Shown piece after piece: positions 25,521-54,201 of a DNA stretch of 64,000 nucleotides. Position 1 is the first letter of the stretch, and the number at the start of each line of letters is the position of its first letter. The notes under the pieces are model-generated. The model ran no database searches and had not been told where the DNA came from. It worked only from the letters and a program-made list of their open reading frames with translations. Both the position numbers and the translations under genes were made by a program. Source of the stretch: Escherichia phage teqsoen; sequence record MN895436.1. One strand, 5' to 3'.

Positions 25521-25991
25521 TTAATCATGTGTCCACACCCCATCGGTATTTGACCAAAGTCGCTGATTATCTGATCCTCGCCACAGCTTTTTGGTCGGAA
25601 GATTTTTCTCATACTTCCCATCAATAATAACATCAACATATTTAAGCATTTCTAGTTGTTTAATATCTTCAAACTTATATCCTGTCCACAACCAAATGCT
25701 TTTATTGGGATAAAGATTTTTAATAGTTTGAACCACAGAGTGAATCACGTCTCTGTTATCAGGATAGAGAGGGTCACCTCCGGTTATAGTCAATCCTTCT
25801 ATATAATCATTATTCAAACATTCAATTAATTGCTCTAGTGTCTCTCCAGTGAATGGAATACCATTTCTAGCATTCCATGTTGATTTATTATAACACCCTT
25901 CGCATTTATGCAAACAACCTGTAACGAAAAGAACGACCCTGCAACCAGGGCCATTCACAAAATCGCAAGGATAAAATCTATCATAATTCAT
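25521..25991 (-). CDS. nrdG: anaerobic ribonucleotide reductase activase NrdG
   Basis: 156 aa; radical-SAM-type cysteine cluster CLHKCEGC. Confidence 0.92.
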   Translation of the reverse strand: MNYDRFYPCDFVNGPGCRVVLFVTGCLHKCEGCYNKSTWNARNGIPFTGETLEQLIECLNNDYIEGLTITGGDPLYPDNRDVIHSVVQTIKNLYPNKSIWLWTGYKFEDIKQLEMLKYVDVIIDGKYEKNLPTKKLWRGSDNQRLWSNTDGVWTHD

Positions 25992-27805
25992 TGGTGTTTA
26001 ACCCTATGCATGATTTCTTTATTTTTACCGAGATTAAATCCGCGCTCGTTCGGATTTCCCAAATAACCACATGTTCTTCTTATGGTATTCATCTTTTTAG
26101 GATCAGTTTCTCCACAAATAGAACAAACAAATCCGTTTTCAGTAGGAGTCATTTCATGGGTACTTCCGCATGTAAAACACTTATCTACTGGCATGTTAAC
26201 ACCAAAATAATCTAAATGTTGTGCAGCATAATCCCACACGGCCTCAAGACCTTTTAAGTTATTTTTCATATCAGGAAGTTCAACATAAGAAATGTGACCA
26301 CCTGTCGCAATGAAATGATATGGCGCTTCACGAGAAATCTTTTCAAACGGAGTAACATTTTCTTCTACTGAAACGTGGAAACTGTTAGTGTACCAGCCTT
26401 TATCAGTAACATCCTTTACACTTCCATATTTTTCTGTATCAAGTTTACAGAAGCGATAACAAAGGTTTTCAGCAGGAGTAGAATACAAGCTAAAAGCAAA
26501 TCCGGTTCTTTCAGTCCACTGTTTAAGACGAGCATTCATTTTAGTTAAAATTTCTTGCCCAATATCACGACCGACAAGAATATTCAATTCGTGAATACCA
26601 ATGTATCCTAAAGACACTGAACTTCTACCGTTTTTAAATAACTCAATTATGTCGTCATCAGGTTTAAGACGAACCCCGAATGCACCTTCTTGGTAAAGAA
26701 TAGGAGCAACAGTCGCTTTAACTCCTTTTAAGGAACTAATTCTACACATCAATGCTTCAAAACATAAATCCATTCGTTCATTGAACAATTCAACAAATTT
26801 CTGTTCATTGAATTGTGTTCCAATATAAGAATCTAACGCGATACGAGGAAGATTCAGTGTTACAACACCGAGATTATTACGTCCATCAAGAATTTCATTA
26901 CCAGTCGAATCTTTCCATACGCTCAAGAAACTACGGCAACCCATTGGAGAAACAGGAATAGATGAGCCAGTGATAGCTTTATTGTTCTTAGCTGAAATAA
27001 TATCAGGATACATTCTTTTGCTTGCGCACTCTAGAGCAAGCTGTTTAATATCATAGTTCGGATCGTCTTTATAAAGATTAACACCTTCTTCAACAAACAT
27101 AACAAGCTTAGGGAAAATAGGAGTTATCCCATCACGACCAAGACCTTTAATACGATTTTTCAGAATTGCTTTCTGAATCATTCGTTCAGTCCAGTCAGTT
27201 CCTGTACCAAATGTAATTGTTACAAAAGGTGTTTGTCCGTTTGAACTAAAGAGAGTATTTACTTCATATTCATAAGCTTGGAATGCATCGTATACGTCTT
27301 TTTCTGTTTTAGACTGGGCATAATTCAACGCATCAGCGATTTGCCATTTTTCTGCATCCTCAATATGTTTTGCATAGGTGCGTTTAACATAAGGAGAAAG
27401 TACTTTATCTACATTAGCAAAAGTCGTTCCGCCGTATTGATGGGAAGCAACCTGTGCAGTAATTTGTGCCATAATTGCAGTAGCAACACCGATTGATTTA
27501 GGAGTTTCAATCTGTGCATTACCAAGCTTAAATCCATTCTCAAGCATTCCTTTTAAATCTACTAAACAACAATTAGTAAATGGAAGAGCAGGGGAATAAT
27601 CAATATCGTGAAAATGGATAATTCCGCTTTCATGCGCTTTCATAATAAAAGACGGGACCATATTTTTGGCAATGTGTTTAGACACAATACCAGCCATAAG
27701 GTCCCGTTGAGTTGGAAAAACACGAGAATCTTTATTAGCATTCTCGTTTAAAAGGTCTTTATTAGTTTTATGAATCAATCCTTCAATTTCTTTTTCAATT
27801 GTCAT
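25988..27805 (-). CDS. nrdD: anaerobic ribonucleotide reductase NrdD
   Basis: 605 aa uninterrupted; C-terminal glycyl-radical motif RRTCGYLG and Zn-ribbon cysteines. Confidence 0.95.
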   Translation of the reverse strand: MTIEKEIEGLIHKTNKDLLNENANKDSRVFPTQRDLMAGIVSKHIAKNMVPSFIMKAHESGIIHFHDIDYSPALPFTNCCLVDLKGMLENGFKLGNAQIETPKSIGVATAIMAQITAQVASHQYGGTTFANVDKVLSPYVKRTYAKHIEDAEKWQIADALNYAQSKTEKDVYDAFQAYEYEVNTLFSSNGQTPFVTITFGTGTDWTERMIQKAILKNRIKGLGRDGITPIFPKLVMFVEEGVNLYKDDPNYDIKQLALECASKRMYPDIISAKNNKAITGSSIPVSPMGCRSFLSVWKDSTGNEILDGRNNLGVVTLNLPRIALDSYIGTQFNEQKFVELFNERMDLCFEALMCRISSLKGVKATVAPILYQEGAFGVRLKPDDDIIELFKNGRSSVSLGYIGIHELNILVGRDIGQEILTKMNARLKQWTERTGFAFSLYSTPAENLCYRFCKLDTEKYGSVKDVTDKGWYTNSFHVSVEENVTPFEKISREAPYHFIATGGHISYVELPDMKNNLKGLEAVWDYAAQHLDYFGVNMPVDKCFTCGSTHEMTPTENGFVCSICGETDPKKMNTIRRTCGYLGNPNERGFNLGKNKEIMHRVKHQ

Positions 27806-44559: not shown

Positions 44560-45021
44560 TCATTGAGTTTTAATTACTGCTTTAGAAGCCTTTCCTGGTA
44601 AACGACGACTGTTGATAATTGCCATCCTGCATTGAAGTGACGGGTCTTTGAACTTCTCATTAGGCTTACAAACCGTAAATCCAAGCCAAAGATTTCCATC
44701 TGTGATTTCTAAACGTCCAGGACGATATTCAACCCCATCAATAAAATCCTCGTCAATGTCAGGACGCGGAGGCATACTCAGGAATTCATTAACTTCTAAA
44801 ACATGGTCTTTTATTTTATGGAATAATTCAAAAACATATGTCTCATCAATCTCCCGTTGAATTGCACGATCAAGAAGATGTTGAGAATATTTTAGATGAA
44901 ACGATGAGACTCCTGCTGCTTTTGATGCCTCACGAATCTCATTGTTAATTTGACGAAACTCCGACTCAAAGTGACGACGAAGCTTATTTCGACGGATAAA
45001 AACTTCTGTATTGATAGTCAT
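44560..45021 (-). CDS. regB: RegB endoribonuclease
   Basis: 153 aa; T4 RegB length and position; own early promoter. Confidence 0.85.
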   Translation of the reverse strand: MTINTEVFIRRNKLRRHFESEFRQINNEIREASKAAGVSSFHLKYSQHLLDRAIQREIDETYVFELFHKIKDHVLEVNEFLSMPPRPDIDEDFIDGVEYRPGRLEITDGNLWLGFTVCKPNEKFKDPSLQCRMAIINSRRLPGKASKAVIKTQ

Positions 45022-45048
45022 GTTGTTCTCCTCTTAACTGATAGAAAA

Positions 45049-45078
45049 ATTATACCACAGTCAAGAGGAAAAGTAAAC
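45049..45078 (-). promoter_or_regulatory. early promoter upstream of regB
   Basis: GTTTAC, 18 nt, TGgTATAAT; AGAGGAG RBS follows. Confidence 0.75.
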
Positions 45079-45080
45079 AG

Positions 45081-45401
45081 TTATTCTTTAAATCTAATCA
45101 ATTTATTCATAGACTTTGAAACTTCTGCACGAACCTCATGTAAGTTTTTAAGCTGTTCAAGACGCTGCTCATAGTAAGCAATTTCATCTTCTTCGAGACA
45201 GTCCTGTGAATCTTCTTTAAGATAGCGTGCATAGTCCTGGAAAGCTTTACGGACTACTTCCTGGAAGTCATCAAGACTTTGAATTTTCTTAGGAGCGGCA
45301 GATACACGACGAGGGGCAGTATAATACTCATAACCAAACCCTGCACTTAATTGAGCCATTAGTATTTTTCCTCTGGTTGGAACACAGCACGGCAAGCCCA
45401 C
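45081..45401 (-). CDS. hypothetical protein
   Basis: 106-aa ORF. Confidence 0.5.
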
Positions 45402-45661
45402 ATACTTGCTTCTTTGAGTTTCGTTTTAGCAATAGTTAACTGATCGAGGCTTTCGGCGTAATTCTTCGCGAGTTCATCATCTTCACAGCTATCAAATGCT
45501 TCCCAGAATTCATCGTATAAAGCGTCAAAGATAAGTCCTAAACGAACTTCAGCGTCTTTGATAGCATTCACTTTACCGATTTTCTCTTCAGTATGCGGCT
45601 TATAACCTTTAATGTCTTCAATCATATTTGACTTCCTCACCAGTACATAAATCGTATTCAA
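45359..45661 (-). CDS. hypothetical protein
   Basis: 100-aa acidic ORF. Confidence 0.5.
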
Positions 45662-45839
45662 CTAAACGAATAGGTTCATGAATGCCATATCCCTGAACAG
45701 AAATTTCTGTAGTAGGATAAATTCCATCAATATCACCCATATTCCACGCTTCGTTAAATTGCTGTTCGCCTGAATTACTAAACCACTCGGCGAAAGCATT
45801 TAGCACATCTTTAGAACCTTCAATAATTATCTTTGCCAT
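45618..45839 (-). CDS. hypothetical protein
   Basis: 73-aa ORF. Confidence 0.5.
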   Translation of the reverse strand: MAKIIIEGSKDVLNAFAEWFSNSGEQQFNEAWNMGDIDGIYPTTEISVQGYGIHEPIRLVEYDLCTGEEVKYD

Positions 45840-46201
45840 TATAAGCTCTCAGTAAAGGTACGAGCAATAACGTCGCGCTGCTGTTCCGGAGTCAGAGAGT
45901 TAAAGCGAACTGCATAACCGGATACACGGATGGTCAGCTGCGGATATTTTTCCGGATGCTTAACTGCATCTTCCAGAGTTTCACGACGCAGAACGTTAAC
46001 GTTCAGGTGTTGACCACCTTCAATTTTAACTGTAGGCTGTGGCTCAATTTCAATTTCACGAGCATGCAAACCGTAGAAAATTTCTGGGTCTACAAAAGAG
46101 TCCTCTTTAAAGGTTTTAGAGACAATAATTCGTGCTTGAATACCATCTTCAAAATAAATAGTACCTTTATGTGTGCCTTCAAGAATTTGATATGCTTTCA
46201 T
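45839..46201 (-). CDS. autonomous glycyl-radical cofactor-like protein (GrcA/YfiD-like)
   Basis: 120 aa; glycyl-radical motif RVSGYAVRF near C-terminus. Confidence 0.7.
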
Positions 46202-46208
46202 ATAAACC

Positions 46209-46589
46209 TCAATTAGAAAATAAATTTATCCAAGATTGTTCTTTAATTAAAAATGGCTCAGAATCATATGCCATTAAACTTTGGGTGATTAGTCCTTTAA
46301 AAGGTCCATCAATAAATTCCATGGTAAAATATGGAATTTTATTCATTAACTGTGCGTTAGGAGCAGTGCACAAAACTCTGCATCCTTTGAATACACCTTT
46401 TTGTAATTTGTATTGCTTGGGATAAAATTCGCTTAAAATGTTGTTATTTGCCAAAATTTCAAAATGATTTACCAATTTATTTTTAATAGTTTTTGGCGAA
46501 AAATAGAGATATTCGAAAAGCTGTGTGTCTGTCATTATTGCATTCCGATTACGAAAAACTGTGGACGAGTAATACCACCAATGCAACAT
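46209..46589 (-). CDS. hypothetical protein
   Basis: 126-aa ORF. Confidence 0.5.
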
Positions 46590-47131
46590 TTACTATTACA
46601 GCAGTAGTGTACAGTGTCAATATGGACGCTATAAATCTTATCCATATCAGGAGATTTGACAGGCTCATCAATTATATACAAAATTCGCGAAAGCGATAAA
46701 CCTCTGAACTTGCTTCCTTTATTACCAATAAAACTGCGTACAGAATCAGTAAATAAACGAAAACGTATATCATCATTAGAATAACGCGAAAATTCCTTTT
46801 TAATGTTATTTGCAGAAATTTTAGCGTAAGCTGAAGTATTAGAAAGAACAATAACTGTTCCGCCATCATACAGCCAATTAGCAGCAAAGTTAGTCACAGC
46901 AATTGATTTACCAGATTGACGTCCACCATCTATACGAAGTGTGCAGTACTGTTTAAGTAATTCTTCAAATGGCGGGATATATTCGTTTTTACAAATTTCT
47001 TCTACTCTAGCATCAGAATGGTGTGTAAAAGCATTCATCAGGGATAGATACGGGCCAGTTAAAAATGTTCTCATATTTTCTCTCTTAATTTTTGGGCCAT
47101 TCCATGGCACATGAGTTGTCCATTCCTGCAT
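46535..47131 (-). CDS. P-loop NTPase-like protein
   Basis: 198 aa; Walker A GGRQSGKS, Walker B ILYIIDEP. Confidence 0.55.
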   Translation of the reverse strand: MQEWTTHVPWNGPKIKRENMRTFLTGPYLSLMNAFTHHSDARVEEICKNEYIPPFEELLKQYCTLRIDGGRQSGKSIAVTNFAANWLYDGGTVIVLSNTSAYAKISANNIKKEFSRYSNDDIRFRLFTDSVRSFIGNKGSKFRGLSLSRILYIIDEPVKSPDMDKIYSVHIDTVHYCCNSKCCIGGITRPQFFVIGMQ

Positions 47132-47209
47132 TACCCATTACCGCGCTTTGGCTCGACCTTATCACAGGTTGACGGGAATACCTCAAATGAGGTCCAGGCT
47201 GTTCCCATA

Positions 47210-47683
47210 TTATTTGAACGATTTAACGTACTGAATAGAACCTTTACTATTTACAAAGGCAATTTTACCATTTTTATTATACATGGTAGCAGTACGTTGA
47301 TAACCATAAGTTTGTTTACCAGATTGATAACCAACTAATGCGAAATTATCTTCGCCCATTTTATTCTGTTTAGCGCGAATGCGTTCATGACCATGTGCCA
47401 TAAGAACCTTAGCATCACCGGTTGCAATGGATCGACGAGTTTTTTCATCTTCAACTGTATTAACAAAGTCGTCAAATGAATCAAATTTAGCATGAGATTT
47501 ATTATACAGTTTTCCATCTACTGCATAATTATATCCCTGTACATCCATCTCAACTTCTGTACCATCATCCAATACAGCAGTGATTTTTTGACCTTTTTTA
47601 AATTTCAAAAGATCAGTAAAAGATTCAGCAATAATTTGAGAATTAATAGCTGCTTCAGTGATAAATTCTTGATATGTTTTCAT
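47210..47683 (-). CDS. internal protein with capsid targeting sequence
   Basis: 157 aa; N-terminus MKTYQEFITEA. Confidence 0.7.
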   Translation of the reverse strand: MKTYQEFITEAAINSQIIAESFTDLLKFKKGQKITAVLDDGTEVEMDVQGYNYAVDGKLYNKSHAKFDSFDDFVNTVEDEKTRRSIATGDAKVLMAHGHERIRAKQNKMGEDNFALVGYQSGKQTYGYQRTATMYNKNGKIAFVNSKGSIQYVKSFK

Positions 47684-47699
47684 ATGATTCCTTTAATTT

Positions 47700-48017
47700 T
47701 TATTCTTTAGGAAAATTTTTAGAATATGCGTCGTAAAGCTTATTTCCAATACGACGAAAAACTCTAGCTGCAAAACGATTTTCTGGGTTTTTAATCATAA
47801 TTTGCATCATATAAGTACCCGCGTCTGAAAGAGCTTCTTCATAGTACCCGTTAATTTCTTTAAGAGTCCTACGTTTACCACCAGGACCATCAACAGTGAT
47901 TTTCCATTTACCTGTAGAAGTGCGACTCGGCGGCTCAACTTGTTCAATCCAAATATAACCGCCTTCTACACGTTGTCCTGCAGCAGATTCTGCAATAAAT
48001 TCTTGATATGTTTTCAT
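47700..48017 (-). CDS. internal protein with capsid targeting sequence
   Basis: 105 aa; N-terminus MKTYQEFIAES. Confidence 0.7.
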   Translation of the reverse strand: MKTYQEFIAESAAGQRVEGGYIWIEQVEPPSRTSTGKWKITVDGPGGKRRTLKEINGYYEEALSDAGTYMMQIMIKNPENRFAARVFRRIGNKLYDAYSKNFPKE

Positions 48018-48026
48018 ATGTTTCCT

Positions 48027-48443
48027 TTAAATGTAAATATTTTTACCGTAATACTTATACCAATGTGGTTTCATTAAAATTTTTTCATCAAGTCGTTGTT
48101 GACTCAATTTAATAGCTGATTTGCATGGATTATAATCATTTTTCCATTCTACTGGAATATCGCTGATGTCAGGAACTTCAGTATCTTTTATACTGAACCC
48201 TCGTTTTAAGCATTCCGTTATAATGTCTAATTGACGCTTTCGCAAAAATTCTAACTTATCGTAAAAGAACGTAACATGACCAGAACCTAAAATAAACTCG
48301 GAAGATATTTTAAAATCTTTAACGCGCTTACCGTTTGCCACATGCTTACGAACTATACCAAAAACACGTGGCAATTCACGGTATTCTGCGATTAAATGTT
48401 GATCAGCAAGTTCAGATACTAAAGTCAAATTAATACGAGTCAT
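48027..48443 (-). CDS. denV: endonuclease V, pyrimidine-dimer DNA glycosylase
   Basis: 138 aa; matches T4 DenV as I recall it ([27 protein letters not shown]). Confidence 0.9.
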
Positions 48444-48468
48444 TTTATCCCTCCAAGTAACTGTGAAT

Positions 48469-48498
48469 ATACTATCACAATTCTAGGAGAAAGTAAAC
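48469..48498 (-). promoter_or_regulatory. early promoter upstream of denV
   Basis: GTTTAC, 18 nt, TAGTAT on minus strand. Confidence 0.65.
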
Positions 48499-48502
48499 AA
48501 CT

Positions 48503-49471
<969 letters not shown>

Positions 49472-54023: not shown

Positions 54024-54098
54024 TGGCGGACGTGATAGGATTCGAACCTATAACCAATCGCTTAACAGGCGATCGCTCTGCCATTGAGCTACACATCC
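54024..54098 (-). tRNA. tRNA-Asn: tRNA-Asn (anticodon GUU)
   Basis: hand-folded cloverleaf, 75 nt, anticodon loop CUGUUAA, T-loop TTCGAAT, CCA encoded. Confidence 0.75.
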
Positions 54099-54102
54099 AA
54101 AT

Positions 54103-54189
54103 TGGTGGGGAGTGGTGGAGTCGAACCACCCGAGTCGCAATGACAATGAATTTACAGTCCACACCGCTACCTCTACGGGATAACTCCCC
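54103..54189 (-). tRNA. tRNA-Tyr: tRNA-Tyr-like (anticodon GUA), class II
   Basis: 87 nt; perfect acceptor GGGGAGT/ACTCCCC, T-arm, variable-arm hairpin, loop CUGUAAA, CCA encoded; D-arm pairing imperfect. Confidence 0.6.
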
Positions 54190-54201
54190 TAATTCATAAT
54201 T

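Follow-up and report, generated by a model that had tools for sequence, protein, structure and literature searches.

The stretch of DNA analysed here (the window) comprises 64,000 nt of Escherichia phage teqsoen (MN895436.1), a T4-type phage (Tequatrovirus), and holds a gene in the position of T4 vs.6, with the gene order vs.5-vs.6-vs.7-vs.8-denV found in T4 (Table 1). Over the 1 kb around this gene, Escherichia phages FriedrichMiescher and FriedrichZschokke match the window at 100 % and hundreds of Tequatrovirus genomes match it at 95-99 %. The open reading frame that a first-pass annotation had singled out for an RVSGYAVRF motif is real, as judged from the list of open reading frames and the sequence, and the motif occupies residues 92-100 of the product. 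The gene is closely packed with its neighbours: its ribosome-binding site extends into the stop codon (TGA) of vs.7, the gene upstream, and its own stop codon shares one base with the ATG of the next gene, an arrangement typical of the packed T4 early-gene string. A scan of positions 44900..48500 returned 13 promoter-like sites where 12.0 were expected, none of them above chance upstream of vs.6, and 3 terminator-like sites where 2.3 were expected.

Table 1. Positions of vs.6, its segments and other features of the window
Feature	Position	Strand	Basis or remark
vs.6 (phage grcA) coding sequence	45839..46201	-	ATG start, 120 aa, TAA stop; PF01228, TIGR04365, 6OWR, T4 synteny
Gly95 codon (GGT), predicted radical glycine	45917..45919	-	motif position; alignments to GrcA and PFL
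GAGG Shine-Dalgarno sequence (ribosome-binding site) of vs.6	46207..46210	-	5 nt before ATG; sequence
TAATG overlap of vs.6 stop and next ATG	45837..45841		sequence
5' half of vs.6, phage-type, AT-rich	46024..46201	-	gene nt 1-178, aa 1-59/60; GC3, alignment, hhalign
Host-identical patch of vs.6	45867..46023	-	gene nt 179-335, 157 nt, aa 60-112; alignment to E. coli grcA
3' tail of vs.6, variable patch end	45839..45866	-	gene nt 336-363; 4 synonymous differences from E. coli grcA
nrdD, class III anaerobic ribonucleotide reductase, second glycyl-radical enzyme	25988..27805	-	PF13597 (E=2e-171), PF01228
nrdG, radical-SAM activase of NrdD	25521..25991	-	PF13353 (E=7e-49), PF04055
ORF in T4 vs.4 position	45359..45661	-	100 aa; PF24729
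ORF in vs.7 position	46209..46589	-	126 aa from first start codon
ORF in vs.8 position	46535..47131	-	198 aa from first start codon
MKTYQEFI ORF, first	47210..47683	-	157 aa
MKTYQEFI ORF, second	47700..48017	-	105 aa
denV	48027..48443
e	48503..48997
Plasmid-like segment in tRNA region	about 54038..54192		similar to plasmid tRNA-Tyr/tRNA-Thr genes

Several neighbours of vs.6 differ from their T4 counterparts. Measured from the first start codon of each, the ORFs in the vs.7 and vs.8 positions are of different length than in T4 (109 and 219 aa there) and overlap each other by 55 nt; the actual start of vs.7 is probably further downstream than listed. The first of these ORFs has no credible Pfam match, and the second has a sub-threshold match to Toxin_19 alone (E=0.0034, 17.9 bits against a cutoff of 23.2). 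Two genes 3' of vs.6, the ORF in the vs.4 position matches the Acb2/Tad1 hairpin family (E=1.2e-19), and this match identifies its product as the cyclic-nucleotide sponge with which T4-type phages counter CBASS. Between vs.8 and denV are two adjacent ORFs that both start with MKTYQEFI, which we take to be the capsid-targeting sequence of T4 internal proteins. In the T4 reference, ipII and ipIII are located between denV and e, whereas in the window e follows directly after denV; relative to T4, this phage has thus undergone a rearrangement or a replacement at the internal-protein locus.

The product of vs.6 was initially described as a stand-alone glycyl-radical cofactor resembling GrcA/YfiD, and alignments, T4 synteny and the published work on the T4 protein Y06I all support this description. 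The protein matches the Pfam family Gly_radical (PF01228; E=2.8e-18, 66.8 bits, cutoff 22.2), carries no other Pfam domain and, at 120 aa and 14 kDa, as compared to 127 aa for E. coli GrcA, is a small stand-alone protein. The C-terminal domain contains the RVSGY loop and is related to the C-terminus of pyruvate formate-lyase (PFL), with residues 58-120 matching residues 697-759 of PFL (1H16; E=5e-26, 81 % identical over 63). Similarity to E. coli GrcA, whose alignment had been proposed as a check, extends well beyond the motif: BLASTP gives 74 % identity across 100 residues (E=3e-52), and the top solved structure in a phmmer search is E. coli GrcA (PDB 6OWR; E=8.6e-42, residues 22-120). In these alignments, Gly95 is equivalent to Gly102 in GrcA and Gly734 in PFL. 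A GrcA-type N-terminal region is also present. Profiles of 15 phage and 12 bacterial GrcA N-terminal halves were aligned with hhalign, which returned a probability of 98.6 % (E=8.4e-16) over 58 columns spanning bacterial GrcA residues 2-65, at about 29 % identity. The top NCBIfam model is GrcA (TIGR04365; InterPro IPR011140), well ahead of others at 153.3 bits; the equivalog cutoff of 170 bits is not reached because the N-terminal half has diverged. These comparisons indicate that vs.6 is homologous to GrcA over its full length, although the N-terminal region has diverged strongly. The N-terminal homology rules out a captured C-terminal fragment fused to unrelated sequence.

It is important to distinguish this protein from the enzyme with which it shares a domain. 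GenBank records of phages variously name the product of vs.6 as a hypothetical protein, pyruvate formate-lyase, formate acetyltransferase, 2-ketobutyrate formate-lyase or GrcA. None of the enzyme names fits a 120-aa protein without the catalytic barrel. PflB (1H16, 2PFL) shares the RVSGYAVRF loop around Gly734 but has a ten-stranded barrel and a Cys418/Cys419 active site, neither of which is present in vs.6, and only the last 63 of its 759 residues are matched. Assignment as a pyruvate formate-lyase (formate C-acetyltransferase) was also rejected on the score of the corresponding model, TIGR01255, which was 88.9 bits against a cutoff of 994 and covered positions 680-744 of 744. E. coli GrcA/YfiD (WP_000627804.1; NMR structure 6OWR), in contrast, is likewise a stand-alone glycyl-radical protein, of 14 kDa, and has a homologous N-terminal region and a C-terminus whose last 61 residues are identical to those of vs.6. 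The phage protein differs in being 7 residues shorter and in its N-terminal ~59 residues, which are weakly similar and encoded by AT-rich, phage-like codons. Furthermore, vs.6 sits in a string of phage genes whereas E. coli grcA is under the host's own regulation.

The closest characterized relative is the T4 orthologue (vs.6, NP_049730.1), whose RefSeq product name is GrcA. This protein, Y06I, is encoded in the same slot, has the same length and is identical to the window protein at 119 of 120 residues; the exception is residue 73, which is histidine in T4 and arginine in the window, the latter being the residue of E. coli GrcA. Near the stop codon the situation is reversed, with T4 having the E. 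coli-type ATC and GAA alleles and the window the phage-type ATT, GAG and TTA. Andorfer et al. (2021; PMC8683613) name E. coli YfiD and T4 Y06I as the sole experimentally validated spare-part proteins of PFL. In their account, which credits the discovery to the Knappe laboratory and cites Wagner et al. 2001 (pmid 11444864), PFL-AE installs a glycyl radical on both Y06I and YfiD, each of which forms a complex with PFL that has been cleaved by oxygen and makes it functional again. A 2026 review gives the same account of the two proteins (PMC13450708). Both articles also describe the N-terminal ~60 residues of YfiD as disordered, as required for efficient radical installation and complex formation, and as dispensable for catalysis after the radical is in place (PMC8683613, PMC13450708). 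The suggestion in the first-pass annotation that the protein might repair oxygen-damaged host PFL thus coincides with the published function of a protein that is almost identical (PMC8683613). A spare-part role for vs.6 is, therefore, already known: it has been validated for T4 Y06I since 2001 and is reflected in the RefSeq name.

We consider, with a probability of about 85 %, that vs.6 is a phage GrcA/YfiD orthologue that restores oxygen-cleaved host PFL during infection. For the mechanism we rely on what has been published about Y06I and YfiD. When infection takes place at low oxygen, the host PFL-activating enzyme PflA, a radical SAM protein, would take a hydrogen from Gly95, and the radical-bearing vs.6 protein would dock on host PFL from which the C-terminal radical domain had been cut off by oxygen. 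The repaired PFL could then again turn pyruvate into acetyl-CoA and formate, and fermentative carbon and energy flow would thereby be kept up for phage production. Use of the protein in vivo and a benefit to the phage are what we infer from this scheme; the searchable literature yielded no report of how a vs.6 mutant behaves in vivo. The phage protein could also differ quantitatively from YfiD because the diverged N-terminal half is the part that affects activation and complex formation in YfiD.

The same divergence could be taken to mean that vs.6 acts against PFL, as a decoy or modulator that titrates PflA or occupies PFL and so redirects or stops host fermentation. Mimics of host proteins are commonly encoded by phages, and the half of the protein that governs activation and complex formation in YfiD retains only about 29 % identity in the phages. 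However, the radical domain is identical to that of the host at Gly95 and at all flanking residues, vs.6 co-occurs with nrdD, which encodes an enzyme of anaerobic growth, and T4 Y06I is reported to restore cleaved PFL rather than to inhibit it (PMC8683613). We regard such an inhibitory role as highly unlikely.

A link between vs.6 and anaerobic infection has support from comparisons among phages. The nrdD and nrdG genes noted in the first-pass annotation are indeed present, about 18 kb from vs.6 in the window. Straboviridae, Demerecviridae and jumbo phages together account for 1,588 phage records with an intact homologue of vs.6, the T4-type carriers infecting Escherichia, Klebsiella, Enterobacter and Aeromonas. 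Several of these homologues are found next to the anaerobic reductase genes: Aeromonas phage PX29 has the order nrdD-nrdG-vs.6-nrdC-nrdH (L009 1023..1878), Yersinia jumbo phage fHe-Yen9-04 carries the homologue between nrdD and nrdG (L010 1..3345), and in Salmonella phage 7t3 it is directly beside nrdD/nrdG. The T5-type Escherichia phage HildyBeyeler (L173-L176) has a vs.6 homologue within a tRNA cluster (L173 20001..20369) and an nrdD gene (L175 2728..4554) whose product is 50 % identical to the window NrdD, and nrdG was undetected in this phage (top tblastn E=4.0). The occurrence of vs.6 and nrdD without nrdG implies that a phage activase is not required, which fits activation by host PflA; in this phage, both NrdD and the GrcA-like protein presumably depend on host activases. 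The gene is associated with nrdD across phage families, and T-even, T5-type and jumbo phages of enterobacteria carry a small anaerobic toolkit consisting of NrdD, sometimes NrdG, and GrcA. This toolkit bears on how phages infect cells in the gut and on phage therapy at low oxygen.

Proximity to nrdD and nrdG in PX29, fHe-Yen9-04 and 7t3 also raises the question of whether vs.6 is a spare part for another glycyl-radical enzyme, either the NrdG-activated NrdD of the phage or TdcE of the host. The C-terminus of TdcE resembles that of PFL. Nolan et al. (2006), on the basis of a Pfam hit alone, suggested that the vs.6 product takes part in nucleotide metabolism. However, vs.6 has no significant similarity to the NrdD of the window (best BLASTP E=2.6) and is, therefore, not expected to repair this enzyme; PFL is matched at 81 % over the last 63 residues and GrcA at 100 % over the last 61, and the T5-type phage has vs.6 and nrdD without nrdG. 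Repair of TdcE is conceivable, but it would amount to an unchanged mechanism directed at a paralogue of PFL. We know of no family of NrdD spare parts and give this alternative a very slight chance.

The most unusual feature of vs.6 is at the DNA level. No DNA match to the 5' half was detected in E. coli genomes, and a forced alignment of this half with E. coli grcA gives about 45 % identity. The adjoining patch, in contrast, is identical to chromosomal E. coli grcA at 157 consecutive bases and encodes the glycyl-radical domain, including RVSGYAVRF. When one mismatch is allowed, the patch reaches nt 353 of the gene (window position 45849); the ATT, GAG and TTA alleles of the 3' tail are common to other phage lineages. 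The 3' half of vs.6 has a 97.8 % match in grcA of all 5,426 complete E. coli genomes, and a megablast comparison of the whole 64-kb window with these genomes returned no second chromosomal match. The run of 157 identical bases recurs in hundreds of independent genomes, T4 among them. Base composition changes at the same point, with GC3 rising from 20.3 % in the 5' half to 41.5 % in the patch, close to the 42.6 % of E. coli grcA. Given the ~82 % background identity of patch-free phages, the probability of 157 matches running is about 3e-14. Among bacteria, the patch is nearest to E. coli (97.3 %), followed by another Escherichia species (96.2 %) and Citrobacter (89.8 %). The patch boundary falls where the N-terminal activation module gives way to the radical domain; the 5' junction is constant among patches because DNA homology starts there, at the EGGQHLN codons.

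Three other origins for this identity were considered and rejected. Selection on codons or protein does not account for it: on viral contigs L102-L104, the same 61 residues are encoded by DNA that is only 82.5 % identical. The pflB gene is excluded as donor by GrcA-specific residues encoded in the patch where those of PflB differ (MNREMLLDAMEN). Transfer from phage to host is contradicted by E. coli grcA itself, both halves of which diverge to a similar extent from Citrobacter, Salmonella and Klebsiella, as in vertical descent; the patch must, therefore, have moved from host to phage.

Patches of this kind are not confined to the window. In the RB69-type Mosigvirus phages (phiE142, Av-05, RB69), the flanks of vs.6 are 64-75 % identical to the window and the 5' half 89 %; the patch is nonetheless 98.7-100 % identical to E. 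coli grcA despite these diverged flanks. The dS between the window and the RB69 lineage is 0.45 in the 5' half of the gene and just 0.07 in the 3' half. Isolates (the window, T4 and L091-L096) differ in where the E. coli-type sequence stops on its 3' side, and alleles of E. coli type and phage type are mixed differently there in T4 and other isolates. Phages of Klebsiella show a corresponding patch from a different source. The Jiaodaviruses Kpn6N and L116 have the same 5' junction followed by 164 nt with 4-5 mismatches (4 in Kpn6N itself) to a Klebsiella grcA allele, whereas their best segment against E. coli grcA is just 103 nt with 8-11 mismatches. GC3 rises at the junction from 24 % to 62 %, as compared to 67 % in Klebsiella grcA, and these phages carry the Klebsiella-type sequence LLDAVEH where the E. 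coli phages have LEDAVKH. The patch is absent from Slopekvirus, Karamvirus, Krischvirus, Aeromonas phages, T5-type phages and the Yersinia jumbo phage, whose genes are 65-87 % identical to 82 bacterial grcA genes.

A gene with so much host DNA might be thought a functionless passenger, a fragment acquired by illegitimate or homologous recombination and not lost yet. The 3' half is essentially host DNA, with 157 nt of 100 % identity and host-like codon usage. The pattern of substitution, however, argues otherwise. Both halves are under purifying selection: omega between phages is 0.11-0.28 in the 5' half, which is old and phage-type, and <=0.1 in the 3' half. Lineages without the patch maintain an unchanged radical-domain protein, as in viral contig L102, where the 61-aa C-terminus is the same as in E. 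coli with a dN of 0 at a saturated dS of about 2.1. The ORF is intact in 1,588 phage records, which span several families, and neither frequent frameshifts or stops in natural isolates nor an omega near 1 was seen. Purifying selection on both halves implies that vs.6 is functional and not a passenger, and we find the latter scarcely credible.

Our results show that vs.6 is an old phage-resident homologue of grcA whose radical-domain half has been overwritten by host grcA via homologous recombination. The identity of the donors is well supported by the allele comparisons, which point to E. coli for Tequatrovirus and Mosigvirus and to Klebsiella for Jiaodavirus. As E. coli and Klebsiella patches each occur in phages of their own host, there have been at least two independent conversions from host to phage. 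The E. coli patch may have been gained separately by Tequatrovirus and Mosigvirus, or it may have been shared between them by phage-phage recombination. The patch is, on the divergence of the surrounding DNA, younger than the phage lineages, and it is matched to the host.

A fit to host PFL and PflA may be advantageous because the boundary of the patch lies at a module border and the LLDAVEH and LEDAVKH residues are of the host type. Under this proposal, the radical domain is repeatedly recopied from the current host in order to fit its PFL cavity and activase, while the phage N-terminus is retained. We view such adaptive tracking of host alleles as conceivable but doubtful. Neutral conversion, in which this half alone is conserved enough to recombine, accounts for the data equally well.

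Host-phage recombination within a gene has reportedly been described for psbA of cyanophages, in work from 2005 and 2006 attributed to Zeidner et al. and Sullivan et al., respectively. The psbA mosaics are also phage copies of a host metabolic gene with segments exchanged with the host, and they too exhibit patchy identity and compositional jumps. The system observed here differs in that a 363-nt gene of enterobacterial phages is involved, the patch corresponds to exactly one functional module, the radical domain, the 5' junction is fixed at the start of homology and two hosts have each given their own allele to their own phages. We found no description of the vs.6 mosaic in the searchable literature; key T4 papers are outside its reach, so an earlier report is possible. 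As a gene call, vs.6 adds nothing new, and the interest of the patch, though genuine, is modest. From the patch it is evident that phages which are strictly lytic and break down the DNA of their host do nevertheless recombine with that DNA. With its short length (363 nt), fixed junction and host-specific alleles, vs.6 is a compact natural system in which gene conversion from host to phage can be measured, and its alleles permit one to ask whether the radical domain must match the PFL and PflA of the host.

Two further similarities to bacterial DNA emerged from these comparisons. A segment in the tRNA region of the window is 83-84 % identical to tRNA-Tyr/tRNA-Thr genes of ~90-110-kb E. coli plasmids; this match was found in 212 genomes, never on a chromosome, and the plasmids are possibly phage-plasmids. 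The second concerns IMG/VR metagenome contigs. Bacterial-looking sequences on viral-classed contigs were set aside, namely L119 (91 % to Yersinia grcA) and L159-L169 (PflB-type C-termini). On two contigs, L111 and L113 (91 and 152 kb), the 3' half contains runs against Haemophilus grcA (L074 and L071) of 74 nt with 1 mismatch and 68 nt with 3, inside sequence that is ~75-80 % identical. These runs may represent a third host-matched patch, derived from Haemophilus grcA and carried by phages of Pasteurellaceae.
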